Source: Blasia pusilla (lineage: Eukaryota). From it: 64,000 bases of DNA. The DNA is taken from positions 32,178,001 through 32,242,000 of the forward strand of contig CM114271.1 of NCBI GenBank assembly GCA_050084515.1. The letters run 5' to 3'. The notes beneath the pieces were generated by a model. That model was not told the DNA's origin, ran no database searches, and worked only from the letters and a program-made list of their open reading frames with translations. This document shows positions 8,556-64,000 of the stretch, one piece after another; positions within the stretch are counted from its first letter, which is position 1; each line of letters begins with the position of its first letter. The translations under genes and the position numbers were made by a program.

Positions 8556-8699
8556 GTCTTCCATGTAAAGAAAGGGCTGTAGCCTTGGTGCCACCAAGCA
8601 CGCCAGCCCTAGCCCTCCATTTCCTTTGTTGATGATGCTTGTGAGCTTGTGGTTGAATAGCTAAGGTTTAGAACTATTCAGTATTGGGGATGCTGTTGG

Positions 8700-9356: not shown

Positions 9357-10340
9357 AATGAAAGAATGAATGAATGAATTGATTTATTGTCCACAGGTGT
9401 TGAAAGAAGGATCATGGGACTTTGATTTACAGAATGTGCAAGAATTGAGCAGGGAGAGCCCATACAAAAAGGTCCTAAGAACTCCTCTGGCCCAGGTGGT
9501 GTTCCCTGGCCTTCACACACTTGTGTAGAATTTAGCAGTCTGAATGTAGTTTTCGCAAGTCATGAAGTCAGGAGCCGTGAGGGTAGGACCTCTAAAGAGA
9601 TTTGGTAACTCAAGTCTGATGTACTTGTGGACAATGCCTGAGTAGAGAAAATGTCCGTCATCATCTAAGATTCCTGACCTACACTGCGTACATATTCTGT
9701 CCTCTCTTTTGGTTTGTGAGAACTTTCCTTTCTCTAACTCCAAGGCTGTAGAGCCACATCTGAATCGAGCAAGTGCTTGATGGAGTTTAGTGGACACTTT
9801 GGCAGATATGTGAGAAATCCGTTCAGTATATCTCTGGGTATTCTTGAAGGTGCAGTAGTGTTGCATCCTTCCAACATTTTTCCCAGACTGATTGCACCTC
9901 CTCTCCCAGCAAAATCGGGCTGGGAGAGGGACTCAGGGACCAGGAACTCCCAGCAAAATCGGGCTGCACCTCCCTGGACGGTCCTGCCTAACCATGGAAT
10001 GGGCAAAAGCCATGGATGTTGAGACGATTCTCAAGCTCTGACCTCCCTCTGACTCCATAGACGGGACTATGGTTTCTCTGGAGTAAAGCACACCCTATCT
10101 AATTGTTTTCCCCATTCCCACTGCCTGAGCACATAGACCAGTACATCGAGTGAACATTGCACCCATGACTACCACAGAACAACCAGCGTTAGAAACCTCA
10201 CCGGAGGAGGTCCAAGACACGACCAGTGTTAAGGATCTTTCCCACAAGCAAACGAAGAGCAGGGACAGTGGACGATCCGTGAGATCAAATGGCTCACGGA
10301 GATTGATCGCACCAAACTCACGCCACTATGTCAGGAAAAA

Positions 10341-11288: not shown

Positions 11289-11387
11289 GCTTAAAACTTC
11301 AGTTCCAACCAGGGAATTAGCAATTCTACAACTTGGAACAAGGACTTGGAGGTGACAAACCTACATGACAAGACCTCCCTATAGGGA

Positions 11388-19677: not shown

Positions 19678-20306
19678 TAAAAGAAAAACAGGAGTAAACA
19701 AATACTGACTTTGATTACAGAGCTAATTTGTTTCTCCAAGCTCCAAGAAGTTACAGCAGATTATAGATACATGGAATAGCTTCACAGACGTCAAATAGGA
19801 AAGGAAACTCTGTACTTACAAAAACATGAGAGAGATCTGATTGATCTACTACTCACAAACTTCCTCCCTATAGGAAGAAGAGACTCTCTACACTATTGAT
19901 GCCTTTTCAAGCAGCACACTATCTCCTCCAGCAGCAGGTCCTCCAAAACATCAACTCCTTCTATCACAATAGGTCAGCCACCCAAGCTGAGGGGCAGCAA
20001 TACTGAAGTTCGCAGGTCCAGGAGCTGGGAATAGTAGAGAAGAGAATGAGAGTGCTCTGGTAAGCCTCTTGCTCTTATAGGATAGCCCCTGGCTATCTTA
20101 AACCCTAAAAGTCCTTAACTAAGGCTAAAAGAGGCTATTATGAAACCCTAAAGGTTTTTAACTAAGACTAAAAAAGCTATTGCGAAAACCTAAAGGTCTA
20201 GTTAATAAACCTAAAAATAGAATTTTACCTATAGATAGAAAAAGTTAACTTTTCATAGTAAAAAACAGATTTTTTCGCTCCTGATCTTACAGTTGCAATT
20301 TCAACA
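19678..20306 (-). repeat. 5' LTR of the Copia element (629 bp)
   Basis: Begins TGTTGAAATTGC and ends ...TTTCTTTTA on the minus strand, followed by the PBS. Confidence 0.95.
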
Positions 20307-29603: not shown

Positions 29604-31753
29604 ATGAAGCCAATCACCTTTGGCTTCATTGGAGCTGCCTCAGTCATCATGATGGCAGGCCTTGTCTTGATTCTCTTCAGGGCTTTCCTCTTCTTTCAAC
29701 GGAAGAAGAAGGAGCCTGTTCTCCCGCTATCCCATCCCAAAGGGAAGGAGTCATCATCATCATCATCATTCAGATTGAAGGCTCAAGGTAAGGAAGCTGC
29801 CTTGAACTGAATATTTATTTCAAGTCTTTACGGGAGTGGTTGAATGAGCTCACATATTGAACAGTCACAAAATTGAAAAGAGAGGATAGTGAATTGAGGA
29901 ATTCTTCTGCTCTACATTTGAAGGTTTTAGATCTTGCTTTTGACTTGAGGATTCAATGAACTGGAATTCAGACCGAGGACGATTATTCACATTTAGGGAG
30001 GCTGAAGATGTTAGTGAAGGCTTTAGTAATCACATCGGTGATGGGACTACCTACCTCGTATTCAAAGGAATACTTTCTGATGGGACTGAGGTGGCTATCA
30101 AACGCATGAGGGAAAACTTGGTCAATGTCGACAGTGAAGAAATGAAATTTCAGTTGCAGGTCAGTTTACTTTCGCTGCAACCTTTAATCTCCAAAAGCTC
30201 AGAAGGTTGTGGACCAGGAATTGCCACATCCTGTATACGAGTGAGTTCTCATGGGGGTTTGCACAGCAGAAGTATCTTCTGTGCTCATCTTCAACATCTC
30301 AGTGAAAAATAAAGCTTATTCATCACTTCTACTACTGCTAGCTGCTTCCACTTATCTGTGGATTTGTGCAATTAATTTTTCCTGTCAGCTGATTCCCTGT
30401 CATGTGGTTGCAGGTTGACTTACTTTACCGTGTCCATCATCAGCACATTGTCAACCTTATTGGATACTGTGATGAGAAACCCCATCGGTCAGTGTGTTAT
30501 TACACTCTGCATTGAACCCTCAGTCATTTAGATAGCACCATAGGTCGTAGCTAGGTTTCCTGATGGGGCTTATTGAAGTCTTACTACTTTACTTTCGGGT
30601 GTACGGATGCAGCAGGATGCTACTTTGCCAGTACGCTCCCAATGGTTCCCTTTTCGAAACACTTCACGGTGCGTGCCCATAAAGTAATGGTAGCGTTGGA
30701 AGGAGGGAGTGAGATGAATTGCCTTTCCTTCATCTATTGAGGGTGCTTATTGTGTCTGACCGTCTCCTAGGATCTTTCTCTTTTGAACAAACACCCCGTG
30801 CTGAATGATCCTCGCAGGTGAGATCCAAGATGAACTACTTACTTGGAAACAAAGACTGAGAATAGCAATGGGAATAGCATATGGGCTTTCCTATTTACAT
30901 CACTCTTGCAACCCTCCAATTATCCATGGAGAGCTGACATCTGTCAATGTAATGCTAACAGAAGACTACGCAGCTAAGGTGAATAATTTTCTGTTCAGGA
31001 ACCCTCTGCAATGTTGGGTGGTATCACACTTTAGGTTCTTTGCACGCAAAAAGAATGGCTGGTAACTTTACACCAGAACTATCATTTTGAGTGCTCTGCC
31101 AATTTAATGAGTCCTTCAAATTTCTTCAAGGTGGGAAAGTTAGTTTGTTGCTCATTTCAGATTGATGAAGTAATATGGTTTGTTGCAGATTAACGGGTTG
31201 GGCAAGGTTCCTCTACTACGATCTAACTCCGAGTTTCAAGTTGGAAGATTATCCAATGAGGATGCACAAAAGCAATCCAAATCTGGAAGGAAGTTTCTGT
31301 ACAGTCGCGCAGGCGACGTATATTCTTTTGGAGTTCTGTTGCTAGAACTTCTGTCTGGAAAGGAAGCTTACAGTGATGAGTACGGCATGCTTGCAGAATG
31401 GGTAATGAGCTCTTTCCTGTGTGTTTTACGAAAGGAAGTCGTAATATTTGGTCTTTCACCTCAGCTCATATGATGAAGTTGGGTTCTTCTGGGTAATGCA
31501 GGCGATGCCGTTTCTGGTGGACAAAGAACGTATAGTGTGCCTCATGGATTCCAGTCTGAAAAATGTAAATACCTTGGAGTACTGTGCCGTATGTGAAATT
31601 GCACGTATGTGTATACAAAACGAAAGCAGCTCAAGACCCCGAATGAGTGAGGTGTTGAGTATGCTACACCAAATTGTGAACATATCTGTAGAAGTAGCGG
31701 CCCCAATCAGCAGTCCAGTCACTTTGAGAGGACTGATGGCAGCTTTTAGCTGA
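29604..31753 (+). CDS. Spliced receptor-like pseudokinase (TM plus kinase; resembles the LRR-VI/MDIS-MRH1 type). Exons: 29604-29787, 29972-30159, 30414-30487, 30613 or 30616-30668, 30818-30978, 31189-31401, 31502-31753
   Basis: GT-AG introns join into one open frame: TM helix plus RKKK, FTFREAEDVSEGFSNHIG, VAIK, HHQHIVNLIGYC, YAPNGSLFETLH, WKQRLRIAMGIAYGLSYLH, LTEDYAAK, DVYSFGVLLLELLSGK, RPRMSEV. The 5' end is uncertain. Confidence 0.88.
29750..29769 (+). repeat. (TCA)n microsatellite encoding poly-Ser in the juxtamembrane region
   Basis: TCATCATCATCATCATCA, read as ESSSSSSF. Confidence 0.85.
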
Positions 31754-38709: not shown

Positions 38710-40310
38710 AAATGGTAAAATGGTAAATAGATCAAGCCCGTGGGATCCAAAGGGTTAAAAGGCTAAAAAACACGTTACAAGTCAGTCAATCACTGACTCG
38801 GAAAAAGATCCTAAAGACCTTCTCTTGGATATTGCCAAGAGCACTTGAGCGATGAATAATGACATCCCTAATATAACAATCTAAATCATAAGGTACCAGA
38901 TATAGTAAGGAATAGATATTCTCCACATCTATTTTATGAGCTAGTCTAATCTCTTCATACCTTGGACATGTAATAAACACATGATCTTCATCCTCAATAT
39001 TTTCTCTGTCACATAAACTACAAATTTGTTCACTTCTATCAATATTAAGCCATCGTCCTTCTTCATTTCCTAGAGATCAAGAGATCTCACCCTTGCAATA
39101 TAAGAGAAGGTCAAGTAAAGAGCTTCAGCCTCTAGAGGAAGACAACCTGTTTCCGCAAGAAGAATAGCATACGGAGTTTGGTTTCTTATACCCAATTCTT
39201 CTTATAGAGAGATCTTTTGCACCCTGTCCATGCGCTCCCAACCTGTCTTCTTACAACTAGGGCCCCAAAATTGGGTCCCACATAAGATCACTGGCAACAC
39301 TAAGCTCCTAAAGAAGAAATTCATAAGATCCCAAGACACAAGATGAGCTCTTCTACACCAATTTAAAAATGAATATAGAGCTTTATAACCAGCTTCTACT
39401 CTCTTTTGCATGCAGAGTGCCCAACTATAGTCATGAGAGAAATCAATGTCTAGATATTTGCAACTCTTCACTTGTTCTAATTGAAGACCTTTGTAAAAGA
39501 ACGAGAACTTGGATCTAGTACCCACTATAATAACTTTAGACTTCTCCATATTAACCTCCATCTGATTCTGCGTACAAAAACTTGCCAAAGTGTTGAGGCA
39601 TTTTTGTAAACCAATGCCATCACATGCTAGTTACATGATATCATTTGCATACAATAGAGCTTTGATGACAAAGTTCTCCAAGCTTGACACTTTCACTATC
39701 ACATTCCTCCAACCATTTTTTGATATCATCTATGAAAAGATTCACAAACTCAAGAGATCTTGAGCACTATCGCAGTCATTCAAGGTTGTCCTCTCTCCCC
39801 TACTCTATTTGGAGTTTTGGTAAATGGTAAATTTGATCTTGGCCCGAACAGAATGGTACTACGCGGCCACGGTTGCTAGGAGATTTGGTGGTACTCCAAT
39901 GGCTTGTAGCCTATCTCATAAGAGCTTACGAGGTAAGATATCAAAATGTTTCTTGAAATCGATGAAACCACAAAACAAAGCTTTTCCATTGCCCTTAGAT
40001 TTCTCCTATAAAACACGTAAGACCAAGATATGGTCGATGGTGTTGTATAGTGGGCGAAAACCAGCTTGGACTTGTGCTCTCTTTTGGAAAGACTATGTCC
40101 ATGCGATCAACTTTGACTCCACCAATTTCCCAAACAGCTTGGCAAAAACACTACCCACCATGATAGTGCGATAGTTTGTCACCAAGTCCTTCCTTCCTGG
40201 TTTTTGAAGAGAAAAAATCTCCCATAACGACAAGGTAGAAGGACAATATCACCCAATACTTTGGTGAGGATCGGTCCGACAGAATCTCCTCCCCACTTGA
40301 GAAGTTCAAT
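38710..40310 (-). mobile_element. Internally deleted 3' part of LINE family C
   Basis: (ATGGTA)n-like tail at 38710-38727; FCTQNQMEVNMEKSKV; RT remnants; paralogous to 40812-42370. Confidence 0.88.
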
Positions 40311-40811
40311 ATGGTAAATGGTAAATAGATCAAGCCCGTGGGACCCAAAGGGTCAAAAGGCTGAAAAACATATTACAAGTCATTCATTCACTGACCCTGA
40401 AAAAGATCCTTAAGACCTTCTCCTAGCTACAGCCTAGAGCAGTTGAGCGATGAATGATGACGTCCCTAAGATAACAACATAAATCATAAGGCACTAGCTG
40501 TAGTAAAGAATAGAAATTCTCCACATCTATTTTATGAGCTAGTCTAATCTCCACATCTATTTTATGACCTCAATCGTTGTTATCTCTGAAAAGAATTGAT
40601 TCAATTCAAAATGTCCCCACCAACTGTTGTAGCCCACAAATTATGGTAAATGGTAAATGGTAAATAGATCAAGCCCGTGGGACCCAAAGGGTCAAAAGGT
40701 TGAAAAACACATTACAAGTCATTCATTCGCTCACCCTGAAAAAGATCCTTAAGACCTTCTCCTAGCTACACCCTAGAGCAGTTGAGCGATCAATAATGAC
40801 GTCCCTAATAT
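40311..40811 (-). mobile_element. Two short 5'-truncated LINE family C 3' ends (40311-~40565 and 40643-40811)
   Basis: Each begins on + with ATGGTAAATGGTAAATAGATCAAGCCCGTGGGACCCAAAGGGTC. Confidence 0.88.
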
Positions 40812-43800
40812 AATGGTAATGGTAATGGTAAATAGATCAAGCCCGTGGGACCCAAAGGGTCAAAAGGCTGAAAAACACATTACAAGTCATTCATTCACTG
40901 ACCTTGAAAAAGATCCTTAAGACCTTCTCCTAACTACAGCCTAGAGCAGTTGAGCGATGAATGATGACGTCCCTAAGATAACAACCTAAATCATAAGGCA
41001 CTAGCTGTAGTAAGGAATAGAAATTCTCCACATCTATTTTATGAGCTAGTCTAATCTCTTCATACCTTGGACATGTAACAAACAGATGCTCTTCATCCTC
41101 AATATTTTCTCCATCACATAACCTACAAATTCGTTCACTTCTATCAATTTTAAACCATCGTCCTTCCTCAATTCCTAGCCTATGAGACCCAGTTCTATGA
41201 CGTGCGATAATATGTCGTAAGAACGTGGAGATCCCTGTAAGTAGATATCCTTGTTCACAATATACAAGCATAGGATTAACATGAAGTTGATAAAACTCCG
41301 TTTTGGTGCCTGGACTGCTCCAAATGATGTTGAGAGATTGCTTCTGTAGATCCTCACGGAGGGCCATCGGTTTCAAGTCCCAATCGCGTTCTGCCACATT
41401 CCACTTTGAAGACCAAGTCACCACATCCGCTATCCACCCTATGGAACGTGTGGCTCGCAAAGCTTGATGAGGGAGGCGAGAAACATCAAGAGATCTCACC
41501 CTTGCGATGTAAGTGATGGTCAAGTAAAGAGCTTCAACTTCTAGAGGAAGAAAACCTGTTTCCGCAAGAAGAATAGCATACGGAGTTGGTTTCTTACACC
41601 AAATTCTTCTTGTAGAAAGATCTTTTGCACTCTTTCCACGCGCTCCCAACCTGTCTTCTTACAACAAGGGCCCCAAACTTGGGTCCCATATAAGATCACC
41701 GGCAACACTAAGCTCTTAAATAAGAATTTCCTAAGACTCCAAGACACAAGATGAGATCTTCTACACCGGTTTTAAAATGAATATAGAGCTTTGTAACCAG
41801 CTTCTCTCTTTTTGCATAAAGTGCCCAACTATAGTCATGAGAGAAATCGATGCCTAGATATTTGTAACTCTTCACTTGTTCTAATTGTAAACCTTTGTAA
41901 AAGAACGAGAGCTTGGATCTAGTACCCACTATAATGACTTTAGACTTCTCCATATTAACCTCCATCTGATTCTGGGTACAAAACCTTGCCAAAGTGTCGA
42001 GGTGCTTTTGTAAACTAATGCCATCACGTGCTAGTAATATGATATCATCTGCATACAATAGAGCTTTGATGACAAAGTCCCCAAGCTTGACACCTTCACT
42101 ATCATATTCCTCCAACCACATTTCGATATCATCTATGAAAACTCCAAAAAGTGTAGGGGAGAGAGGGCAACCTTGAATGACTCCAATGGTACTCAAGATC
42201 TCTTGAGTTTGTGAACCTTTGATCTTGGCCCGAACGGAATGGTATAACGTGGCCACGGCTGCTAGGAGATTTGGTGATACTCCAATGGCTTGCAGCCTTT
42301 TCCATAAGAGCATGCGAGGTATTGTATCAAAAACTTTCTTGAAATCGATGAAGCCGCAAAAAAAAGCTTAGGGTCAAGAGAAAGACCATCCTAATCCTCA
42401 CATTTTCCATTTGCTAATCTTCTTAGTTGAGTCATACAGTCTGGTATGCCTTCACAATGCGCCATAGATGTAGCATGGGGAAAGAAGTAGAGCTTTTCAA
42501 CAAAAGATATCAAAGACTTGGAATCAAGAGTAGGTTTTGAATACCGTACTAGTTACCATCTCCAAAATGTTTTGGGATCATCATACAACTCCCTTGTTAA
42601 GGACTCTTGCTTCCGCCGTAAGAAAGCTCGTTTCTTAGATGTCACCAAGTGTTTGTAAAGATCCCTCATAATTAGCCGACTTTGGATATCCAAAGATTTG
42701 TCCATTGATCTTATCCTTGCTTGCTTTCATTCACAGTCAAACCACCCATTACAAGGCAACCTCCTAACACTTCTATCCCTGTGTCACGAAAAGAACTTGG
42801 ATGGAGTATTTTTTAGCAATTCGGTTAGTTGCAAACTTGCCGTGTGTGGATTAGGGCTCTATACAAGTGGCTCCGAAAGTTTAAAAATGCTCTGTCAAAG
42901 GATTTATAGAAATATTTGAAGAGATTCTAGACAACAAACCATCCTTTGGTTCTTTGAGAAGAGGAGCAATCAAGGAATCACTAAATTCGATAAATTGAGC
43001 AAAACGTGTGTGAGCATTGAAATCCCCGACTAGAAAGACTTTACCTTTGCTTTGGTATTTGAGAACATCCCCAACAAGTCGATAAAACGTTTGACTTCGA
43101 TTGCAAGTGTGCGTTGAGTAGATAAGCATGGACAGTGGTGCAAAGTAACAAACTGCCAAATAACAATAAGATCCCCCAACTAAACCAAGACGTAGCCAAT
43201 GATATTGGCCCCCGATATCTTGATCTTCTACATGTATCAAAGGTAGAAATTGTGACCTGATGAAAGTAGCAATACCTCCATAACCCCTTCTTGCCGTTTG
43301 CCTTCTTTGGTTCCATCTCGATCCCACCAAAGTAAACCCTTGCATCTCTGCAATAGTATTGCTCTCATATTCCCAAGTCTCCACAATATTGATGATGTTT
43401 GCCATATCCCAAACTGGTAGAGCAATCACATACTTTATTGTTGAAAGACCGCTTCTATTCCACATCAACACTCTAAACTTCTTGGATTGCTAGGTTGATA
43501 ACTCTGTTTTTCTTTGGGTAACAATTCCTCGACCATCGCATAGATAAGCAATAAAACCTGCTTCTTAATCCTCTTTAACCTTTGCAAGCTCCTTTCTCTT
43601 AGCTTCAACTTGTTGAGGTGTAAGATCAAGATCCTACCATATCCTCCCTCCTTTGAGAATGGCCTTGTTAGCCATGGCAGCATCATGTTGAGTTTGATCA
43701 ACAAACTTAAGTAGAATAGCACGAGGTTGTGTTCCCGTTTTCCCAATGCGGAAAGCTTGAGCCAAGTCCGGGTTGTGAACATGAAGTGTATCAACCAAGA

Positions 43801-47278: not shown

Positions 47279-47602
47279 AGCACAACCGAGTTATACACAC
47301 GAAGTTGTGAGAGATTTGAGTTTATGCTCTTGTAGATTTGAGGATTTCAGATCTGAATCTTGCTGAGGCTATAACTTTGAGGTGGAGTGTCATATGAAGC
47401 TGATATTTGGAGGCAACGTGGAGTATAAGGCGGCGCCTTAGCCCCCAGAATTGCAAGCACAACCGAGTTATACACACGAAGTTATGAGAGATTTGAGTTT
47501 CTGCTCTTGTAGATTTGAGGATTTCAGATCTGAATCTTGCCGAGGTCATAACTTTGAGGTGGAGTGTCATATGAAGCTGAGATTTGGAGGCAACGTGGAG
47601 TT
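47279..47602 (+). repeat. 1.8 units of the 177-bp monomer 5' of LINE ORF1
   Basis: CACAACCGAGTTATACACACGAAG at 47281 and 47458; homologous to the reverse complement of 45100-45277. Confidence 0.9.
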
Positions 47603-47646
47603 TAGCGAGATTATACTTTCTAGGATGTAGTGAAGTCAAGTATAGG

Positions 47647-48402
47647 ATGACTACTCAAGACGAAATCTTGAATCTAGTGCAAGTCGTCTTGCACGAATTG
47701 AAAGAGCTTCGACAAGAATTCAAGGTGCAAACTTCTCAATTAAACCATGCACATATTCAAATCCGAGAGTTGAAGGCAACGCAAGAGGTTTTGAAGAAAG
47801 TGTTGAAAGATAGTTCTAGTGTGATGCTCGATCTTTCCAAATCCGTTGCGGATGTTCAAGAGAAGGCATCATCCTTGGTGACTACTCCCAATAGTTCAGG
47901 ATTGCATGAGGTTGTTGAAACTTTAGAAGTGAAAATGAAATCTTATGCTGAAGCTACAAAGGTTGCTCATATCTCTTTCTGTCAAGAGCAAGAGATAGAA
48001 AAAGAAAACCAATTTGCGCGTAGAAAGAATGTGAGAATCTCAGGTTTGCCGGAAACAGAGAGCAAAGAGGTGAAGAGTGTTGTCACCAAGTTCTTGGTTG
48101 ATACACTTCATGTTCATAACCCGGACTTGGCTCAAGCTTTTCGCATTGGGAAAACGGGCACACAACCTCGTGCCATTCTAGTCAAGTTTGTTGATCAAAC
48201 TCAACGTGATACTGCCATGGCTAACAAGGCCATTCTCAAAGGACGGAGGATATGGTTGGATCCTGATCTCACACCTCTACAAGTCGAAGCTAGGAGAAAA
48301 GAGCTTGCAAAGGTCAAAGAGGCTCAAGAAGCAGGTTTTATTGCTTATCTACGCGATGGGCGAGCAATTGTTACCCGGAGAAAAAGAGAGTTATCAACCT
48401 AG
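47647..48402 (+). CDS. LINE ORF1 protein (coiled coil plus RRM-like domain)
   Basis: ATG at 47647 conserved with the minus copy (44246); RRKNVRISGLPE...AFRIGK...PRAILVKF...IWLDPDLT. Confidence 0.88.
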   Translation: MTTQDEILNLVQVVLHELKELRQEFKVQTSQLNHAHIQIRELKATQEVLKKVLKDSSSVMLDLSKSVADVQEKASSLVTTPNSSGLHEVVETLEVKMKSYAEATKVAHISFCQEQEIEKENQFARRKNVRISGLPETESKEVKSVVTKFLVDTLHVHNPDLAQAFRIGKTGTQPRAILVKFVDQTQRDTAMANKAILKGRRIWLDPDLTPLQVEARRKELAKVKEAQEAGFIAYLRDGRAIVTRRKRELST

Positions 48403-51400
48403 CAATCCAAGAAGCTGAGAGTGTTGATGTGGAATATATGAGGCCTTTCAACAACAAAGTATGTGAGTGCTCTACCAATTTGGGAGATGGCGGATATTAT
48501 CAATATTGTGGAGACTTGGGAACATGAGAGCAATACTATTGCAGAGATGCAAGGGTTTACTTTGGTGGGATCGACATGGAATCAAAGAAGGCAACGGGCA
48601 GGAAGGGGTTATGGCGGTATTGCTACATTCATCAGGTCTCAATTTCTACCTCTCATTCATCTAGAAGATCAAGATATCGGGGGCCAATATCATTGGCTAC
48701 GTCTTGGTTTGGCTGGGGGATCTTATTATTATTTGGCAGTTTGTTATTTTGCACCACTCTCCATGCCTATCTACTCAACACGCACTCACAATCGAAGTCA
48801 ACCGTTCCATCGACTTATTGGGGATGTTCTCAAATATCAAAGCAAAGGTGAAGTCTTTCTAGTTGGAGATTTCAATGCTCGCACACGTACTGCCCAATTT
48901 ACCCAATTCGGTGATTCCTTGATTTCTCCTCTTCTCAAAGAATATGAGGATGGTTTGTGGTCTAGAATCTCTTGGATCTTTCTACAAATCCTTTTGACAG
49001 CATTTTTAACCTTTGGAGCCACTTGTAATTTGAAAGTTCTTAATGGAACCTCTCATTTTCCCAACTCTCACTCCAATACGTGTTTCTCCTCTACCGGCGC
49101 TAGCACCATCGATTATCTTCTGTCCTCGCCCGCTGATAGCTCTCTTATCTCTAAATTTGATATTCTAGAACCTCAGCCTGAATCAGATCATGCACCTCTT
49201 TTGTTTACTCTCTCACTATCAAAGGCCATTCCTCTCTCGACATGTCAATCTATTTTAGCTTCTCCCAAGTTTTGCTTAGATCCTGGTAAAAAAGATCTTT
49301 ATATGCTACATTTACAAGAACTCTTGACTCGCATTGTATGGAGCCTGGATCCAAACACGGCAAGTATGCAACTAATTGAATTGCTCAAAAATAGTGCATC
49401 TAAGTTCTTTTCACGCCACAGGGATAGAAGTGCTAGGAGGGTGCCTTGTAATGGGTGGTTTGACTCTGAATGCAAGCAAGCAAGGGCACGATCAGTTGAT
49501 AAATCTTTGGATATCCCAAGTCGGCTTATTATGACGAGCCTTTACAAATACTTGGTGAAATCTAAGAAACGAGCTTTCTTGCGGCGGAAATAAGAGTCCT
49601 TGACAAGGGAGCTACATGAGGACCCCAAATCATTTTGGAGACGGTTAGTAGTACGGTCTTCAAAACCTATTCTTGATCCCAAGTCTTTGATATCTTTTGC
49701 CGAAAAGCTCTATTTCTTCCCCGATGCTACATCTATGCCACGTTGTGAAGGAATACATGGCTTATTCTCTGAAGGAGAGGTGATGACTCAACTTAGAAGA
49801 TTGGCGAATGGTAAATGTGAGGATTTGGATGGTCTTTCTATCATCTGTGAAAACTCCAAGTGGAGTAGGGGAGAGAGAGGGCAACCTTGAATGACTCCGA
49901 TGGTACTCAAGATCTCATGAGTTTGTGAAACCTTTGATCTTGGCCCGAACGGAATGGTATAATGTGGCCACTGTTGCTAGGAGATTTGGTGGTACTCCAA
50001 TGGCTTGCAGCCTATCCCACGAGAGCTTACGAGGTATAGTATCAAAAGCTTTCTTGAAATCGACGAAACCGCAGAACAAAGCTTTCCAATCCCATTGCCC
50101 TTAGATTTCTCCCGTAAAACACGCGAGGCCAAGCTTGATATGGTCGATGGTGTTGTATGTTGGGCGAAAAACCAGCTTGGACCCGTGCTCTCTTTTGGAA
50201 AGACTCTGTCCATACGCTCAACTTTGACTCCACCATTTTCCCAAACAGCTTGGCAAAAACACTACCCACCATGATAGCGCGATAGTTTGTCACCAAGTCC
50301 TTCTTTCCCGATTTGTGAATAGGAACAATCTCCCGTAGCGACCAAGTTGAAGGAAAACCATAGATAGCGGCATCACCCAATACTTCGGTGAGGATCGGTC
50401 GAATAGAATCTCCTCCCCACTTGAAAAGTTCACTAGAAGGACCATCCAAATCCGCACATTTACCATCTGCTAATCTTTTTAGTTGAGTTGTCACCTCTGC
50501 TTCAGAGAATAAGCCCCGGCCGGTATTCACGGACAGTGGTGCAGAATAATAAACTGCTAGATAGATAAACAACAAGATCCCCCGACCAAACCAAGACGTA
50601 GCCAATGATATTGGCCCCCCGATATCTTGATCTTCTAGATGTATCAAAGGTAGAAATTGACACCTGATGAAAGCAGCGATACCGCCGTAACCCCTTCCAA
50701 CCCGTTGCCTTCTTTGGTTCCATGTTGATCCCACCAAAGTGAACCCTTGCATCTCTGTAATAGTATTGCTCTCATGTTCCCAAGTCTCCACAATGTTGAT
50801 GATGTCCGCCATCTCCCAAACCGGTAGAAACCTATTTTTCTTTCCTTTCTATCTCTTTGCTCTTGACAGAAAGAGAGATATGAGCGGCCTCTGTAGCTTC
50901 AGCACAAGATTTCATTTTCACTTCTAAAGTTTTAACAACCTCGTGCAATCCTGAACTATTGGGAGTAGTCGCCAATGATGATGCCTTCTCTTGAACATCC
51001 GCGACACACTTGGAAAGGATCCAACATCACACTAGAGCTATCTTTCAACACCTCAGAGCTTCGAAGGTAACCAACTTCCACTCTCTCTTGCACGCAAAGT
51101 GCCCAACTATAATAATCACGAGGGAAATCAATGCCTAGATGGCTTGTACAAATTGAAAGCATCGATACGGCCGTAACCCTTTCCAACCCGTTGCCTTCTT
51201 TGGTTCCATGTCGATCCCACCAAAGTGAACCCTTGCATCTCTGCAATAGTATTGCTCTCATGTTCCCTAGTCTCTCATGTTCCCAAGTCTCGTGCAATCT
51301 TGAACTATTGGGAGTAGTCGCCAATGATGATGCCGTCTCTTGAACATCCGCGACACACTTGGAAAGCATCTAGCATCACACTAGAGCTATCTTTCAACAC

Positions 51401-54824: not shown

Positions 54825-57800
54825 CTATTGCACGTGTTCCAAATCCGCCTCCGCAATCCAAGTCGCCTCCTTCACATGGTAGCCCTTCCATTTGACCAAG
54901 TATTCATACTTGTTGGCCCGACGTCTCGAACGTAAGATGGTCTCCACCTCGAACTCCGGCTCCTCATTTACGATGACAGGGTGCGGTCTCACCACCTGTC
55001 TCCGCTCGAAACGTCCATTATCTTGAAGGTATTTCTTCAACAATGACACAGGAAAGGTCGGGTGAATCTTGAACTCGTCCGGCAACCTCAACGTATACAC
55101 ATCCTCAAACGGGTTTGCCACAATCACATACGGTCCAAAGATACTTGGCGGATGACCCGCAGACAACTCTTTCGGAAGAGTGAGATTCTTGAGACTCAAC
55201 CACACTTGTTCTCCAACTTGGAATCGTACTTGGCGCCGACTCTTGTTAGCATGCTTAACGTACCTCATTTGAGCCTTTGCAAGACTTCGCCTCGCGCTCT
55301 CTTCTTGTTCTCGCATCTCTACCAACAAACTTTTTCGTGCCGCTTGTCGTGTTCGTGCCAATGTAGTACCCTTCGAAGGGGTAGATCAAGAGGCCCTTCG
55401 GCTCGTCCATTTGCCAGGAGAAACAGAGATTCTCTTGTTGCAGAATGCTTGGTCGAGTTTAGCAAAGTATTCCGCCATGCTTTGCCACCTAACCTAATCG
55501 CGTTGATCAAGACGACATAATTCCTCAATCTTCGATTCACGATAGAGTTAACCTTTTCATCTGTCCATCCGCTACGTGGGTGGAAAGCCGATGAAACTCA
55601 GCTTGGTCTTAAACCTTCGAACAAGTGCTTCGAAAGCATCTGGTAAACTTTGATCCCGATCTGAAACAATGCTCCTCGGCAAACCATGAGCACGCCACCA
55701 GCTATCGAGGAATAGTTCTTTGTCAGATATCGCCGTTCAGAATCCACCGTCGCACGAATCTCGCCAACTTGCTAAACCGATCAACAATCACAAGTATAGC
55801 GTTGTATCCCCCACATTCCGGAAGACTCATGATGAAATCCATACTCACACTTTGCAAGGGTCCTTCGGGGATCGGCAAGGGATGCAGCAAGCCCTGTTTC
55901 TTATCATAAGAGACTCTATTCGTTTGGCAGGTCACACAGGTCTTCACATATTGAGCAACATCCTCCTTCATGTTGGGCCAAAAAGAACCGCCGAGAGCGG
56001 CTAGCGTAGATTTCTCTCCTTTATGTCCTGCCAAGGGCCCGTCGTGACATTCCGCTAACACCTTGGTTCGCATCCTGCCTTGCCCTACATAGATCCTACT
56101 CTGTTTGAACCTTAATAAACCGTGCCTCAAACTTATGTTGGCCATCTTCTCCCCCTGCTTCAACTTCCTCAAGTATTCCCCTACTTGAGCATCCTTCATA
56201 TATCCCTCATGAATCCTTCTCTCCAGATCTGTTTCCTTAGGGAACATTGCTCTCAAGGCCTGTGTCGTCGATGGCATGTGTTCCTCCTTGCGACTTAACG
56301 CATCTGGAATCACATTATCTTTACCTCGCTTGTGGATCAACTCTACATCCATCAGCACCAAAGTATCATACCACCGCAGTTGTTTCGGCGTCACTCGATC
56401 CTGGGTCTCAAAATACTTGAGTGATATATTATCGGTGAATACTCGAGTCCTGTGGAGCCCTAGATAATGCCGCCACTTCCTCAAGCAACGTACCACCGCG
56501 AACAACTCTTTTTAGTGAGTAGGCCATCTCCTTTCAGTGTTGCTAAGCTTCTTGCTCTCATATGCCACCGGTCTCCCTTCTTGCACCAACATTCCTGCAA
56601 CCGCAAAATCACTAGCATGGGTATGCACTTCGAACGGTTTGTCAAACTCCGGCAGCTTTAACACTGGTTCCTGCGATAGAATCTGCTTCACTCGGTTGAA
56701 TGCCTCATTAACTTCCTGGGTCCAAGTCGTGTTGGCAAACTTTGTTGTCCAATCCGTGAGAGGTCTCACAATTCCCGAAAAAGTTTTTCACATAAGTACG
56801 ATAAAATTGCACCGCACCTATGAACCTCCTCATCCCCTTTACAGTGGATGGGGGTTCCCACTCGGAAATCGCCTTTACCTTTTCCATGTCCGGATCGACG
56901 CCATCTCACGACCGACCACGTGACCCAAGAATTTGATCTTACTCAAACCAAATTCGCTCTTCTCTCGTTCGATCTGGTTGATTTGCCCTTAGCTTAGACA
57001 AGACCGCTCTCACATGTCGAACGTGCTCCTCTAGTGACTTCGAATAGATAAGTATGTCATTGATATAGATGATAACATACTCATCCATTTCCTTGTGAAA
57101 AATGGAGTTCATCAATGTGGTGAACGTCGGAGGCGCGTTACATAAACCGAAAGGCATCACTACAAACTCAAAGGAACGTATCTCGTCCGCACGATCTTCT
57201 CCACATCGCCTCGGCAATCCAAATCTGGTAATATCGACTTCAAGTCAATCCTACTGAAATATCTCGCTTTGCCACCCGACCTATCAAAGAGATCATCTAT
57301 CCTCGGAAGAGGATAATTGTTCGAACCGTCACTTTGTTCGGTGCACGGTAATCAACACACTGACCTCATCTTTCCATCCTTCTTCTTTACAAAGAGAACA
57401 GGTGCTCCATAAGGTGACTTGCTAGTCCTAATGTAACCCTTTTCCAAGAGCTCACTTAACTGCTTTTTCAACTCAAGAAGTTCCTCCTGATTCAACCTAT
57501 ATGGTGCTTTTGAAGGCGGTTGGGAACCGGGTATGATCTCTATCTTATGATCTACGGCTCTATGCGGCGGTAATTCAGTTGGAAGCTCATTTGTCAAGAC
57601 ATCCTCAAACTCCTTGACCACTTCCTGGAGTGGTTCTGGGATTCCCCTTGAAGCAGTGTCCTGATCTCTGCGTATACTACTTGTAGCCTCCTCCACTTGT
57701 CTCATCAAGCAGAGAAATCCATCCTCCAACTCAGTCATGCTCCTCCTTGTGATCGAGTTCACCAACTCCATCTTCGCTGGAACCTCACGGACCAACCGCA

Positions 57801-59050
57801 CCTGTAACCGTTTGCCTTTTAACAAGACGCTCAACCTCAATGGTCAGCGTCTTAACTCCACCTCATACGCATCTAGAAATGTATTTCCCAAAACTCCGTC
57901 AATGCCGTCCATTTCGCATACAGTGAAATTCTCCTTCAACTCGAATACCCCGCATCCTACTGTCAAACCCAAGACCAAATCAGAAGTCCGATGAGACTTG
58001 CCTCCTACAAATCCCACTCGAATGGGCTCGTCCGCCTTAGAGGTAGACAGCCCCAGTTCCTTCACGATTTCGGGCTTAGGAAGGAGTGCAAGCACACTGT
58101 ATCCACGAGCAACAACACATCGCGATCAGCAATCTTGGATCTTAGGTACACCAAATTGTGCGTCCTCTTGGTGACTTGAAGGGCGTCTCGAGATCGCCCA
58201 CAACGGATGCTTAGCGAAAAACGCAATCATACTCCCATTACTAACCTTCGGTTTGAACACCCTTCGACAGTGCCCGGTTCGCCATAGTTGTAGCATACGA
58301 CCTTGCCGTTTCCTGTCTTTGAGTGTTGTCCTCCTTTCCGCTTCGCATGAAGTTCCACTCGTTTTGCTGCCGGGACAGACGAATCTCCTGGTTCGTGTTG
58401 GCCCCCACTCCAGCCTCTTTTGAACACCTCCTTATTTTTTGACTTCTTCGAAAAAAAAATTTGACTCGAAGGGTTTCTGGGTTTGGACCTCATCGTCCCC
58501 AATCCGCTCCGCTAGCTTCAGAAGGTCCGCGCAGGTCTCTGGCAACGTCGGCATTCGGTATAGGGCCTTTTCAGCACTCGGCTTGAGTCCACTAATGAAG
58601 ATAGCCTTCTTTGCGTGCTCATCCATCTTTGGACTAGAAGTCAGTTTTGCACTAAACTCCCTCACATACGCGCTTAAGGAACCACTCTGCCGCATCCACA
58701 CGCATTCCACCGTGTCACGCAACCCTTGATACTCCGGAGTGAACCGATCCCCAATCAACTCCTTGAACTCCTCCCAACTCAGAGGTGACTCGCCGCCCAG
58801 ATATTCCTCTCGTTGAGTTGTCCACCATTGTAGAGCATGATCCTTCAGGAAAGTAACGGCTACCGTCACCTTGTCTCGCTCAGTGACCCTCTACGCCTCG
58901 AAATCTGATTCGATTCGTAAGGAAATCCTTCACTTTCCGCGAGCGCCCCACTCCCGTGAATCGCGTGGGCAGGTTTGTCTTGCAGAGCTTTTTGCCCGCA
59001 CCCGGGTTTCGAGTGGCCTCTAACTCTGCAATCCAATTGCTTTGTTGGGA
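54825..59050 (-). pseudogene. Gypsy gag-pol with a C-terminal chromodomain, frameshifted
   Basis: Chromodomain FEVETILRSRRRANKYEYLVKWKGYHVKEATWIAEADL (~54835-54955) follows the GPY/F module. Confidence 0.9.
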
Positions 59051-59905
59051 CATCTGCTCCACCAACACTGTCGTGCGCATACATATCGCTACACAACATA
59101 CATCGCTGGTCACATCTACACCACACAACACCGATCTTCCCCACATACGGGTCGATCCACACATGTACAAAAATAAACTCATACATATACATGGAGATCA
59201 CTCAACAAAATATAAAGAGTAGTAAAAACGGCACACCCGGCCTAAAACTCCACTCCTCAATCTACATCGGCATATCGAGCCTCGTCCACCTTGTGCTATC
59301 AAGGAATCCGGACGCTAGCACCCTAGTCCTAGCTCACACACATACAAGGGAGGTGCTCCAACGGCCCAACATGAGAAAGATGGCTTAAGAAAGCCATCTT
59401 CCTCTCTTATATAGGTTGGGAAGAGCCAAGAGGCTCTTCTCCTAAAAATAGCCCTTCCTTGGTAACTTTTGTGTGCCGCAGGTTACTGAAGGGGCAGGTG
59501 ACACAGTCAACAAGTCACCCGGTGTAAAAGACCTCAACATGAAAGTCGTCAGAAACGACGTTCCTGACACAATGGACCTATCCTCAACCTCATCCGACAC
59601 TGTGGGACAAAGTTACACTGAAGATAGTCCGTTGGCTCCTATGCCCTATCCACGATAGATCTCGGCCTATCGGCTACTCAGATGTGACAGCTGTCGTGCG
59701 CATACATATCGCTACACAACATACATCGCTGGTCACATCTACACCACACAACACCGATCTTCCCCACACACGGGTCGATCCACACATGTACAAAAATATA
59801 CTCATACATATACATGGAGATCACTCAACCGCCCCCCTAGCTGGCACTTGGATCCCTCCAACTCCAGATAGAAAATATCACATCTCTCTGACATGACCTA
59901 CTACC

Positions 59906-60050
59906 TTATATACATCTCGGACACATCCATCGTCCCGTGGGAACCACATCAAGAGGGGGGGTCAGACATGACATATGCCACCCTCGAGAATAACCATCAC
60001 ATACCAACATGGTGGCTGCACCCCTCGCAGATCCGCACAACATACACCTC
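59906..60050 (-). other. PHD finger at the Gypsy Pol C-terminus
   Basis: CMLC...MLVCDGYSRGWHMSCLTPPLDVVPTGRWMCPRC fits the C4HC3 pattern with the fourth Cys read as Tyr. Confidence 0.88.
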
Positions 60051-63000
60051 AAGCCTGCGGTACCACGCGCCAAGCTTGGATCCACGAAATCCCATCTCGT
60101 TCGGAAGATGACATGGCGCACAATTGCGCACATGATCCTTCCAAACCATACCATCTCGTCCCTCCAACATGAGGACTCGGTCGGTAATACCTCGCGCACA
60201 CGTAGGATCGTGGCCTGCGATGACATCTAGCGTCGTGGGTGCCGCTGCTTTGTAAATACACGTAATCTCCGAGGATGAAACCTCCTAATCCCTGGGCGAT
60301 AACCTCCTCCACGAATGGTCGCGTACCTCAATGTATCTCTATCTTTGGGCAATAGCTAAGTTCTCAAAGGCCATAGGCATAACTCTACGAAAAACTTCTG
60401 CCCTTTGAGAACATGCTTGCACCCACACATCTGGATCATCAAGATCTAACACCTCCGCCATGTCACGTCAAATCGCTGCAGGTAAATCGGCTCTCTCCCA
60501 AAGAGCAAAAGTACGGTGAAAATGACGCCAAGGATGCTGCCGACTAAAGGGATAACCCATAGCCAACCATGGCAAGCTGTGGAGGTCCCACTCCCTCAAT
60601 TGTCCTCGCCGCAAGCCATACTTGCGCAATCCTCTCTTCACCGTCTGTACCACTCTCTCCGCCAATCCATACGCCTCGGGATGATCCTAGGCGTGGTGCG
60701 GTGATCTATCGGCCTTTGATCACACAAGGCACTGAAACTCTCCCCTGAACTCGGTACCTGGTCGGTCAACACCTCCGGTGCACCAAAGTGACTAAGCACC
60801 ACGATCTAGAAACGCATAAAATTTGTTCCTCGCTCGCCTTGTCGGTAGTGCCACCAACTCTATCCACTTGGAGAAATGCTCCACCATGACCAACACGTAC
60901 CTATGATGACGCCCTGTCAATGGCAAAGGTCCCAAAGTCTAAACTCCACCGATAACCTAAACCCATAATCGGCAAAGGATGTAACTGCGGAGTGGGAGCA
61001 TTGAAGGATGCTCGCACTCTATCACATACCATACATCCGGCCCTGGCTGCTGTACCCGGTATGCATGCGCGCCACCAATCTTGAACACAGAGTAAGTTGT
61101 AAAGGTACGCTTTACTCGAAATGTCCCAACTCCTCATGGGCATGTCGCACTACACGTGCTCGCTGGGAAGGATGAGGTACCACTCGTATCCTACCATCTC
61201 CCCATATCCGCAAAATGTGAGTCCCCTCCCACCTGAACCTCTTGGCTCTCTATAGGATCCGATCCCGCTCCCTACCACTCACTGTACTCGCAATGACGCC
61301 AGTGCGCAAGAAGTCCACAACCTCCACGTCGTCATGGATATCACGACCACCTGTCGCCTCCTCACTGACCTCTGGATCCAAAGACTCATCATCCAACCCC
61401 ACCTGTGGAGTCATCACATGTGGCTGACCTGCCATAGTCAACCAACAAACATAGGCAGATGCATGCCAACCGGGCACCATCTCCTCATCACTCTCTGCGT
61501 GCCATCGAGCTCCCGTGACGTCTCTCTGACTCGGACATGGGTTACGACTCAACCCATCCGCATCCTGGTTCAGCCGACCTAGCCTATGAACCACCTCAAA
61601 CTCATACTCCTGTAGTAATAGAGCCCATCTGGCAAGCTTTCCAGTAAGCTTGTCGGACTCCATCAACCACCTCAACGGCTGATGATCAATGATAAGTGTG
61701 AAAGGGTTGCCAAATAAATAGCACCTAAAATGTGCCACGGCCCACACTGCAGCCAAGCACTCTCCCTCATAGGAGTTGTACTTCGCCTCTGCAATGTTGT
61801 TCGATCGACTCGCATAAGCCACAACGAACTCCCTCTCCTCGTCATCCCTCTGGGTAAGCACTGCTCCTAGACCCAACATGCTCCAATCCGTATGTAATCG
61901 AATGGGCGACCCCTAACCGATCTCTGTAAAATGGGTGAGGGCGTCAACTGTCCTTGAGCTCTGAAATGCTCGCTCCCGATCATCTCCCCACAACCACACG
62001 ATCAAGTCTCGTCAACAAGGTCAAAGACTTTGCGATCGCACTAAAACCCTTGACATACCTGTCGATAGAAGTTCGCCACCCAAGAAATGCTCGGACTCGA
62101 CTCTCATCATCGTAGGGCGTGGAATCTGCGCAATAGCCTCTACCTTCGTCTGCCTGAACGCCTAACCCACTCGGGTATATGGTGTGTCCCAAGTACTCAA
62201 TCTGCTCTGGAAGAATCTGACTTGCCTGGATGTAACTTCAGTCCATGTAAGCTGCAATCGCGAAACACCTCCTCCAAGTGTCGCTCATGCTCCTCAACCG
62301 TGGGAATCAAGATAAGAATATCATCTATGTAACATCGTACAAAATCCAAGCCCGTAATCCTATCCATCACTCTCTGAAACTCCGCAGGAGCGTTCTTCAA
62401 CCCAAATGGTAAGAACCGCCACTGATACAAGCAATCTCTCCCGAACCGATCTATCCCCCAGAATGTTGTCTTCTCCCTGTCCTCCAACCTGATAGGAAGC
62501 TTATGATAGCCAGCACGGAGATCTAAAGTACTGAAGATCTTTGCATGCCCTACCGCATCAAAGATCTCCTCAGGAGTAGGCATGGCATACCGATCTGACC
62601 TCGTTTGTCGGTTGATATGACGGTAATCTCCACACATCCGCCTATCCGTCCAATTGCCATACATATCCTTCTTTTGGGCATGACTGTGGCAGATGCATAC
62701 TCCCCATGTGACAACTCCACAAGTCCTGCCTCCAACAAGTCCTGACTCCTGCTCTGAATCAAGGCTCGCTCCATATCAGAATATCTATAGGGTCGATGAA
62801 AGATTGGCGTATCACTAGCCAACTCAATCCGTATCTCGGGACCCTTCAGCGTACCCAAGTCTCTCATACTGAAGGCAAAACAACTGACATGCCCTCTCAG
62901 AAACCTATGAACTTGCCGTCGCTCTCCTCCTATCAACTTGAGACCTATCACAGGCTCCCAAGTCTCCATCGTAACCTCACTCGGAGAGGACGCAACCTCC

Positions 63001-63269
63001 GGCTTTGGTTGCTATGTAGCAACCCTAGCCACCTCCGCAACAACCACTCCACTCTGACCTCCTACACCATGGTCCACATCCGAAAAATGAACATGTGCTA
63101 CTCTAGCCGCCTTCGCACTCTCTCGAACGGCGCCCCGGGAAGTCCATGGGTGCCTATCTCTCCTCGTCTCGCCCTTGACCAATGCCTCAGAGACTTCAGA
63201 GGCGGTGGTCCAACTAAATGGGCGTGGCGGCATGGATGACACTCGCATCCGTCTCGCTCCACCCCATAC

Positions 63270-64000
63270 CTAGGTGACTATCCATGTGAGACAGTTGAGG
63301 TCCATCGCTTTGCCCCAACACTGTCTCCATGATGCCTCGGTCATCCTCGGCACCGCCGTGGTACCGTAGTGAACCCCATGGCGCTCGCGCTCATCTTGTA
63401 GGCTCCTCCAATACTCCGGTCACCTCATCCCAAATCATGGCTGGTCCTCCCGGACGAAAGGCATGGGATCTTTGGGAAGCTCACCAACGAGGTAAGGCTG
63501 CCCTCAACTCCCCACCCTATTGGCCGTGGCCAACAGTGGTCTATCATCGCGTGTCACCACCTGAGATCGACGCCCTGAGTCCAAAATAGCATCCACCGTG
63601 AGATGTGATGCTCTTTGGACTCCACTGTAGGCTCGACTCAGTACCTCTAATGGTATCAAGTTCGTCCACCACAGTCGTGGACGATGGGCACGTGACCCAA
63701 CTCTCGCTGTATCTAACAACACAGCCGGTCCCAACCAGGACCTCACCTGATGTACACTCGTCATCACACGTGCACGAGTATCTCCCAACAACGGTACGTT
63801 CTCCAAAATGTACGTTGGAGAACATATCTGACTCTGCTGCAAGTGTCGTACTACTCGCAGCATCTCCCAAAACATTCCTGACCTCGGATCCTGCAATCCA
63901 AATCCTCGGCCAGATGATGAATGACCCTGACATGGCCATCCAGCAATCACCAAATGAATGGTGCCAACTCTATCCAGATCCTGCGCCCCCACCAAAGATA
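63270..64000 (-). pseudogene. C5-cytosine DNA methyltransferase domain within Gypsy pol; N-terminal part outside the window
   Basis: Motif IV LVIAGWPCQGHS, DPRSGMF, motif VI YILENV, motif VIII AHRPRLWWTN; after frameshifts, motif IX ERER.MGF (~63372-63395) and motif X GKAMDLNCL (~63290-63316). Confidence 0.9.

Follow-up and report, generated by a model that had tools for sequence, protein, structure and literature searches.

A Dnmt3-type DNA methyltransferase in a degenerate Ty3/Gypsy-type retrotransposon copy of Blasia pusilla, and the element family to which it probably belongs

The stretch of DNA analysed here (64,000 nucleotides of Blasia pusilla, contig CM114271.1, hereafter called the window) ends in minus-strand coding sequence in which a C5 DNA methyltransferase (DNMT) lies directly upstream of the reverse transcriptase (RT) of a Ty3/Gypsy-type retrotransposon, and the question raised by this locus is whether the methyltransferase is a genuine part of the element and whether a lineage of such elements lives in land plants. 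Retrotransposons with a de novo DNA methyltransferase invert the usual picture in which the host silences the transposon, and so far they have come from a charophyte alga and from dinoflagellates, which are hard to manipulate. The results showed that positions 59069-64000 (minus strand) are the 3' part, about 5 kb, of a DNMT-bearing Ty3/Gypsy-type copy, with the window edge removing its 5' half. We consider it probable, at roughly 85%, that this copy is the 3' part of a degenerate Gypsy-DNMT3 retrotransposon and that the DNMT is an integral and conserved module of the element family. An earlier note on this DNA had proposed a Ty3/Gypsy element carrying its own C5 methyltransferase, and the proposal was borne out by matches to PF00145, RVT_1, RNase H and PHD on one strand, as well as by the relatives described below.

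The methyltransferase and the pol domains of the window copy

The open reading frame (ORF) at 63998-63507 (minus strand, 164 amino acids, open at the window end) matched the PF00145 DNA_methylase profile with an E-value of 2.2e-9 and 37.6 bits, in comparison to a curated cut-off of 22 bits, which is the check that the earlier note had suggested; the alignment placed residues 13-77 of the fragment on profile positions 61-120. The minus strand of 63998-63012 as a whole corresponds to the C-terminal two thirds of a Dnmt3-type C5 DNA methyltransferase. When translated in frame -3, it contains GWPCQ (motif IV, with the Cys present), ENV (motif VI) and RAHRPR (motif VIII), and past a garbled stretch the same frame continues with DERER..G..GTT (motif IX), GKAMDLN (motif X), a linker, a TAG codon at 63014-63012 and the N-terminal region of the Gypsy RT. 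Motifs IV, VI, VIII, IX and X are thus found in canonical order and at the conserved positions of the family, as judged from an alignment with 21 relatives and from an intact relative. C23, Q24 and W21 were invariant in all 22 aligned sequences, motif I is present in the aligned relatives as LDLFGGI, and conservation of the motifs was seen across 22 to 30 sequences.

The domain can be divided into an open part carrying motifs IV, VI and VIII (63507-63998, minus strand; identified by PF00145, translation and alignments) and a disrupted part comprising the target-recognition stretch and motifs IX-X (63270-63513, minus strand; identified by a tblastn frame change, stop codons and alignment). About 39 codons of the disrupted part (63513-63397) are read in frame -2, not -3, according to the tblastn alignment with residues 1114-1152 of the Marchantia protein P0013, and the DNMT is interrupted in frame by three TGA codons (63506-63504, 63437-63435 and 63422-63420) and by a premature TAG (63272-63270). 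The ordered motifs reported from the letters alone, including the Cys of motif IV, stand, while the domain itself is not intact; the coordinate 63270, which had been taken as the start of the feature, is this premature TAG and not the end of the DNMT frame, which lies at the conserved stop at 63014-63012. A working enzyme would need an uninterrupted frame, and the window copy does not have one.

To assign the methyltransferase to a type, we turned to the intact DNMT ORF of L001, a related metagenome locus. Among solved structures it matched DNMT3A first (E 4.8e-11), followed by DNMT3B, DNMT3C, plant DRM and the bacterial enzymes M.HaeIII and M.HhaI. The AlphaFold model of this ORF had a mean pLDDT (predicted local distance difference test) of 83.7, with residues 358-438 disordered, and its target-normalised TM-score (template modelling score) against the catalytic domains of DNMT3A, DNMT3B and DNMT3C was 0.80 to 0.84. 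Sequence and predicted fold thus place the methyltransferase of the element in the Dnmt3 type, in agreement with the Dnmt3 label of the Klebsormidium element discussed below.

Downstream of the DNMT, the RT (N-terminal region and RVT_1 core, 62197-63011, minus strand; Pfam and tblastn) gave an RVT_1 match at 62775-62197 with an E-value of 1.7e-22, and the RT of L001 aligned with it by tblastn at 68% identity, in frame -3 and then in frame -2, with the frameshift near 62670. It is followed on the same strand by an RNase H (RH) domain at 61250-61912 (RT_RNaseH, E 1.9e-33; RT_RNaseH_2, E 5.9e-21) and by an integrase (IN) with an H2C2 zinc finger and a DDE core at 60102-61170, with frameshifts near 61110 and 60932. 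The integrase was located by tblastn only, at 39% to 70% identity to P0057 (residues 1086-1421), L001 and ORF2 of L026 (residues 637-972), the values for P0057 and L026 being 39% to 57%; Pfam gave no integrase match on the separate ORF pieces of the window, four of the eight scanned pieces having no match at all, while rve and Integrase_H2C2 were both matched by Pfam in relatives. The last domain is a C-terminal PHD finger (ORF at 59906-60226, minus strand; PF00628, E 1.1e-9), standing in place of the chromodomain of chromoviruses and found at the C-terminus also in ORF2 of L026, in L035 and in P0063.

The order DNMT, RT, RH, IN and PHD on one strand equals that of the element family, and the succession of RT, RNase H and a DDE integrase with an H2C2 finger is that of Ty3/Gypsy pol. 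A chromovirus would carry a chromodomain at the integrase C-terminus, where a PF00628 PHD finger was found instead, and an element of the DIRS/Ngaro kind would carry a tyrosine recombinase and make no target-site duplication, whereas here a DDE integrase is encoded and 4-bp duplications are seen in relatives. Downstream of the DNMT, tblastn showed changes of reading frame near 62670, 62222, 61110, 60932 and about 60150, and over the whole window copy at least seven frameshifts were counted, together with a premature stop. It is a dead, non-functional relic and therefore methylates nothing.

Relatives, the conserved stop and the ends of the element family

A word-indexed search with the 164-residue fragment against longer proteins returned 63 matches at E<=0.001, of which 16 were from Marchantia polymorpha, three from Calypogeia fissa and three from Sphagnum, the other 41 being without an organism name. 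The 22 bryophyte matches were mostly 59% to 75% identical (51% to 53% for two Marchantia records), and all organism-named relatives above 59% identity in this search were bryophytes. At the same threshold (E<=0.001), an exhaustive HMMER search gave 1941 representatives, with lengths of 1000 to 3200 amino acids in many cases. The named algal relatives, a protein of Closterium sp. NIES-54 and the 'pol' of Scenedesmus sp. PABB004, were 39% to 44% identical. Among eight long relatives scanned with Pfam, PF00145 was present in all eight; P0008 and P0017 (both Marchantia) and P0057 combined PF00145, RVT_1 and RNase H in one protein, rve was matched in P0057 and P0063 and PHD in P0063, and P0044 carried a CCHC knuckle and a protease match slightly below the cut-off.

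A scan of metagenome contigs added 63 loci, 29 of them at 60% to 74% identity. In L001 a single frame, interrupted by no more than two stops, encodes gag-CCHC (957 amino acids), DNMT (438 amino acids) and RT-RH-IN (766 amino acids, running up to the end of the contig), and L026 encodes protease and DNMT in ORF1 (1369 amino acids) and RT, RNase H, integrase and PHD in ORF2 (1047 amino acids). Proteins of Marchantia, Calypogeia and Sphagnum, at 60% to 75% identity, and dozens of metagenome loci show the same succession of gag, protease, DNMT, RT, RNase H, integrase and PHD. Public protein records thus place a Gypsy-DNMT3 lineage in liverworts and mosses, and the suggestion that the lineage persisted on land is supported by these relatives (22 of the 63 matches), not by the window itself. 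In the DNMT tree of 61 rows, from which seven rows of short coverage, including all three Sphagnum rows, had been dropped and which had no host DNMT3 outgroup, the window grouped with L001, with two other sequences and with every copy from Calypogeia and Marchantia in a clade with support of 97/93, and stood outside a subclade of Marchantia and Calypogeia (96/89).

A related and apparently much larger group, seen in metagenomes and in the Scenedesmus and Closterium records, has the order RT-RH-DNMT-IN-PHD in one ORF, as in L035:1865-11851 with its single ORF of 3329 amino acids. Among the long proteins of the profile search, 79 of the 120 listed (of 201) carried PF00628, most of them together with integrase families. 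Either the DNMT module changed its position within one element lineage, or it was exchanged.

Between DNMT and RT the window copy has the codons TAG CAA CCA (63006-63014, minus strand), which, to judge from the related loci, mark the conserved end of ORF1 (gag, protease (PR) and DNMT) and are a candidate leaky stop, the RT continuing in the same frame. The window and 20 loci share the position of this in-frame stop, about 100 codons past motif X and with the RT N-terminus following directly; these 20 include insertions seen twice (L003/L007, L013/L018 and L024/L025), and a 21st match of the search pattern, in L014, lay at an unrelated place and was left out. The stop and the two codons that follow read TAG CAA CCA in the window (63014-63006) and L001, TAG CAA CCC in nine loci, TAA CAA CCC in seven loci, TAG CAG TTA in L026 and L027, and TAG TAG CCA in L028. 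The database proteins show a corresponding end, in that 20 of the 22 with a locatable motif X terminate 92 to 161 residues beyond it, including P0013 and P0021 of Marchantia, while P0026 and P0048 run on from DNMT into RT; five further proteins had no recognisable motif X pattern.

A UAG followed by CAR-YYA is a classical leaky-stop context of tobamoviruses, and gag-pol read-through is used by gammaretroviruses. The window, L001, L026 and L027 fit this context, sharing with those viruses an in-frame UAG followed by CAA CCA or CAG UUA between the structural and polymerase ORFs. The family differs from the tobamovirus case in that the 16 loci with CCC as third codon depart from YYA at the last base, that some relatives have no stop, and that read-through is here a prediction. 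We infer a programmed read-through of the conserved UAG, in which Gag-PR-DNMT would be the abundant product.

Downstream of the PHD stop the window copy contains, in order, AGCTAGGGGGGCG, a repeat B1, the dinucleotide GC, a repeat A and a repeat B2, all on the minus strand. The first, at 59830-59842, resembles a polypurine tract as read from the sequence, lies directly upstream of B1, and the same 13-mer precedes B1 in L007. B1 (59692-59829, ending in ...CGACA) and B2 (59069-59206) form a direct repeat of 139 nucleotides that is 99% identical, with two of the 139 positions different. Repeat A (59207-59689) starts with TGTCAC, contains a TATATAAG box at 59413-59406, and in relatives is also the 5' end of the element. 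From repeat comparison and analogy with relatives, the 3' terminus is placed at the CA at 59070-59069, directly followed by GTGT (59065-59068; ACAC on the plus strand), a candidate 4-bp target-site duplication, as suggested by L007 and L013, with its partner beyond the window. The duplication AACAC proposed in the earlier note is one base too long, relatives showing 4 bp and not 5 bp. Where B1 meets A, the element 3' end, GC and the element 5' end together make the palindrome GACAG/CTGTC (59686-59695), which is perfect over 10 nucleotides in the window (59695-59686) and over 16 nucleotides in L007, where it is built from the same termini that flank integrated copies.

The full layout is visible in L007, which consists of A (1679-2017), a leader, the coding region, the same polypurine motif, B, GC, A and B; the partly visible L006 and L013/L018 fit this A-coding-B-A-B arrangement. 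The 5' similarity started at an identical base in all ten loci printed (eight different flanks), always with TGTCATG, the 3' ends of relatives read ...CACGACA, and both insertions with two visible ends had 4-bp target duplications (AAGG in L007 and CACA in L013). The TG...CA termini and short target duplications of Ty3/Gypsy elements were therefore found in relatives, the window showing only the 3' CA and the flanking GTGT. The two identical flanking long terminal repeats (LTRs) of such elements were not found; in relatives, the coding region is instead preceded by A and followed by B-A-B or by a single B. The TG...CA ends together with the 4-bp duplications show that, the odd repeats notwithstanding, these elements are inserted by their DDE integrase rather than by a recombinase. 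In the 20 more distant loci L026 to L061, self-BLAST for terminal repeats showed that most contigs end in repeats or collapse them. Two loci of a related family, L011:6945-7057 and L017:11507-11620, end after a single B rather than B-A-B, at the identical end base.

The last 45 or so nucleotides of B were 85% to 90% conserved between the window and the metagenome loci, the remaining non-coding DNA not being conserved. A 45-nucleotide stretch at the end of B (59684-59728) was matched by 40 to 68 RNA reads per run that resemble the window only here and are unlike it on both sides; it may be a cis-acting terminal signal common to several families.

Known systems, abundance and alternative explanations

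According to de Mendoza et al. 2018 (PMC5890265), Klebsormidium nitens has a Gypsy element that carries Dnmt3, and in Symbiodinium Dnmt3 is carried by DIRS and LINE elements; the legend of Fig. 4c of that paper gives the repeats of KnitGypsy-Dnmt3 as A-coding-B-A-B, as in DIRS, with domains as in Gypsy. Compared by description only, the window family shares with KnitGypsy-Dnmt3 a non-rearranged Dnmt3-type DNMT in a Gypsy polyprotein, the A-coding-B-A-B repeats and a streptophyte host. The features of that kind are found here as an in-frame Dnmt3-type DNMT in the polyprotein, as B1-A-B2 in the window and as the full A-coding-B-A-B in L007. The two differ in that the DNMT of KnitGypsy-Dnmt3 is placed 'in the Pol ORF' in the text of PMC5890265, while that of the window family ends ORF1 before the conserved stop; the main-text description of KnitGypsy-Dnmt3 makes no mention of a PHD finger, of 4-bp duplications or of hosts among the bryophytes, which are all features of the window family. 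SymbioDIRS-Dnmt3 of Symbiodinium, as presented in the main text of the same paper, likewise has a Dnmt3-type DNMT in a retroelement polyprotein and A-coding-B-A-B repeats, but it carries a tyrosine recombinase and a DIRS-type RT, in comparison to the H2C2/DDE integrase, TG...CA ends and target duplications of the window family.

Chromoviruses, such as the neighbour at 54825-59053, have the same pol order and a chromatin reader on the integrase C-terminus, but this reader is a chromodomain where the window element has a PHD finger, their LTRs are ordinary and they have no DNMT; the RTs of the window element and of this neighbour are about 23% to 31% identical. EpiLTRs/DAM-LTRs, as outlined in a preprint (bioRxiv 10.64898/2026.05.21.726589), are LTR retrotransposons with captured DNA methyltransferase and chromatin-reader domains; by the same outline they differ in having a DNMT4-related cytosine methyltransferase at the pol 3' end, an adenine methylase and a chromodomain, and they are from Cymbomonas and Euglena.

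The earlier note had known of no such lineage in land plants. The full-text literature search found no paper on DNMT-bearing Gypsy elements in bryophytes, although supplements, which lie outside such a search, may list copies, and Marchantia goes unmentioned in the main text of PMC5890265. However, recent papers, among them preprint 10.64898/2026.05.21.726589, use the phrase 'streptophytes (Gypsy-DNMT3)', and the bryophyte proteins are public. The Gypsy-DNMT3 kind and these proteins are thus already known, and what is new is some anatomical detail. The conserved stop, the integrase PHD finger and the A-coding-B-A-B ends with integrase-type duplications offer concrete mechanistic hypotheses, and close relatives in Marchantia polymorpha, which is genetically tractable, as well as in Sphagnum and Calypogeia, would make the function testable in a land plant. 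The annotation of element copies reads 'DNA (cytosine-5)-methyltransferase' or 'hypothetical protein', so that tallies and trees of plant DNMT3 genes can be contaminated by them.

Host DNA contigs and three RNA-seq runs were mapped to 59000-64000 at >=90% likeness. From the contigs, 104,690 pieces fell on this region, and the summed DNA depth was highest over A (144,000 to 170,000) and was 20,000 to 110,000 over most of RT-IN and 4,000 to 10,000 over 63175-63842. The window copy belongs to a very abundant subfamily in the host genome. Each RNA-seq run gave 879 to 998 reads, most of them 90% to 95% alike and mostly in sense orientation, with a depth of 5-40x over RT-PHD and the repeats. Most RNA reads have a 2-nucleotide insertion at 60932, where the window copy shifts frame, and indels were also seen at 60506, 60799 and 62060; reads without the frameshift of the window at 60932 indicate that relatives lacking at least that frameshift are transcribed. 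The indel state of the window was the majority state in the DNA contigs at the sites checked (60932 and 63509), which together with the near-identity of B1 and B2 despite at least seven frameshifts suggests that an already defective subfamily was amplified. The observed/expected ratio of CpG was 0.78 for the DNMT element and 0.94 for the neighbouring chromovirus, in comparison to 0.31 to 0.35 for LINE and Copia elements and 0.49 for a kinase gene in the window, and the DNMT element and the chromovirus are accordingly either young or little methylated.

Three observations weigh against the favoured reading of the window copy. Over 63175-63842, the C-terminal half of the DNMT and the linker, the DNA depth is 3-10x below that of RT-IN and the RNA depth is 0-2x; this portion of the DNMT may be missing from many copies, or may in them have dropped below 90% likeness. 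The gag, the protease, motifs I-III, the 5' repeat and the partner of the target duplication all lie outside the window, beyond 64000. The stop is not universal either, P0057 running from DNMT to integrase in one ORF and L035 being a single ORF of 3329 amino acids.

The alternative that survives best concerns the history of the module rather than its presence, and holds that the bryophyte-type lineage gained or rearranged its DNMT independently of KnitGypsy-Dnmt3, so that the likeness would be convergence and not persistence from charophyte algae. Recurrent independent captures of DNMTs are documented in the main text of de Mendoza et al. 2018 (PMC5890265), and the position of the DNMT does vary, being PR-DNMT-RT in the window, L001 and L026 and RT-RH-DNMT-IN in L035, the latter order being probable for many algal and metagenome proteins as well, judged from the domain sets among the matches listed. 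Moreover, no protein named as Klebsormidium occurred among the 63 search matches, the 120 listed of 201 long proteins or the 20 clusters looked up. However, the rare A-coding-B-A-B layout is common to the window family and the published Klebsormidium description, as is the Dnmt3 type, the integrase PHD finger is common to both domain orders, and the element DNMTs form one tree with the window clade nested among metagenome and algal ones, albeit in a tree lacking a host DNMT3 outgroup. On balance we regard independent gain as rather unlikely.

The other alternative, a chance juxtaposition in which a piece of a DNMT3 gene or pseudogene of the host came to lie beside an ordinary Gypsy element, could appeal to the single copy visible in the window and to the DNMT depth below that of the RT, but it is highly improbable and can be dismissed, because the DNMT-RT linkage recurs in Marchantia proteins and metagenome loci, the junction of DNMT tail, conserved stop and RT N-terminus in one frame recurs in the window and 20 loci, and the DNMT reads into the RT in the same frame with no intron. 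Copies of this RT without the DNMT would have spoken against an integral module, and the linkage was instead found in P0008, P0017, L001 and L026.

Possible replication of the family and other features of the window

For intact relatives of this Gypsy-DNMT3 family, a mechanism can be proposed in which ORF1 (Gag-PR-DNMT) would be the main product and occasional read-through of the UAG (UAG CAA CCA in the window) would yield a fusion with RT-RH-IN-PHD. As part of the Gag product, the DNMT would be carried into the particle, and its possible targets would be the cDNA of the element itself or the DNA that surrounds a new insertion. Methylation of cDNA or of the insertion site has been proposed for retrotransposon-borne Dnmt3 in the main text of de Mendoza et al. 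2018 (PMC5890265). The PHD finger of the integrase probably steers integration by reading histone tails, in the way of chromovirus chromodomains.

For priming, the 16 nucleotides directly after the 5' A in L007 and L023 match a site inside A exactly in reverse complement. This complementary site lies 26 nucleotides past a TATA box in L023, and in L007, whose 5' A has no intact TATA, 28 nucleotides past the TATA of the 3' A. A complementarity of 9 to 11 nucleotides is kept in four other loci, in three of which it starts directly after A, and none was found in two of the eight. Self-priming is known from Tf1, which the self-complementary site of L007 and L023 resembles. With a polypurine tract before B and such a primer site after A, reverse transcription would be expected to produce B-A terminal repeats. 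The inserted copies instead run from A to B, with their boundaries precisely at the perfect palindrome within the B-A unit, as if a circle had been linearised at this site. If integrase made a single cut at the palindrome, A-coding-B-A-B would result from a two-LTR circle and A-coding-B from a one-LTR circle, and both forms were seen, although recombination between B1 and B2 accounts equally well for the short form. We offer replication by self-priming through circular cDNA as a speculative model that is unlikely to hold as a whole, and it is similarly doubtful that the family is a still-active Gypsy lineage of land plants that packages its DNMT at Gag-like abundance by UAG read-through and integrates from circular cDNA.

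On the other side of the element 3' end, a second and unrelated Gypsy element, the chromovirus mentioned above (54825-59053, minus strand), matched Retrotrans_gag, RVT_1, RNase H, Integrase_H2C2, SH3_Tf2-1 and a chromodomain. It starts 15 nucleotides past the 3' end of the DNMT element, with TGGTGGAGCAG, which resembles a primer-binding site, at 59063-59053. We also considered whether B-A-B is the 5' LTR of this chromovirus, as this primer-binding-like site follows it, and rejected the assignment, relatives of the DNMT element sharing the layout and the conserved B terminus. No LTR pair for the chromovirus was found within the window, and the DNMT element may have inserted between the 5' LTR and the gag of the chromovirus.

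The only host gene seen in the window is a multi-exon, receptor-kinase-like gene at 29944-31750 (plus strand), of which one exon matches PK_Tyr_Ser-Thr and whose look-alikes in the protein atlas are streptophyte receptor kinases. Taken alone, this gene places the host among the streptophytes, and the relatives of the element make a non-seed land plant the probable host; a streptophyte alga, for which the position of the window outside the subclade of Marchantia and Calypogeia could be cited, is unlikely in view of the 97/93 clade shared with the liverwort copies and of the 39% to 44% identity of the named algal relatives. The catalytic loop of the kinase-like gene reads, by eye, HGE in place of HRD, and the gene may, on its residues, be a pseudokinase. 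An open LINE ORF of 714 amino acids with endonuclease and RT lies at 11385-13529 (plus strand). When it was compared with 5.8 billion proteins, the best relatives were 22% to 30% identical, near-full-length matches being at most 27% identical, and by this comparison the LINE family has no close relatives among public proteins. Other pieces of LINEs were noticed by eye at about 4056-8482, 20287-22590, 38789-43489 and 47581-50848.

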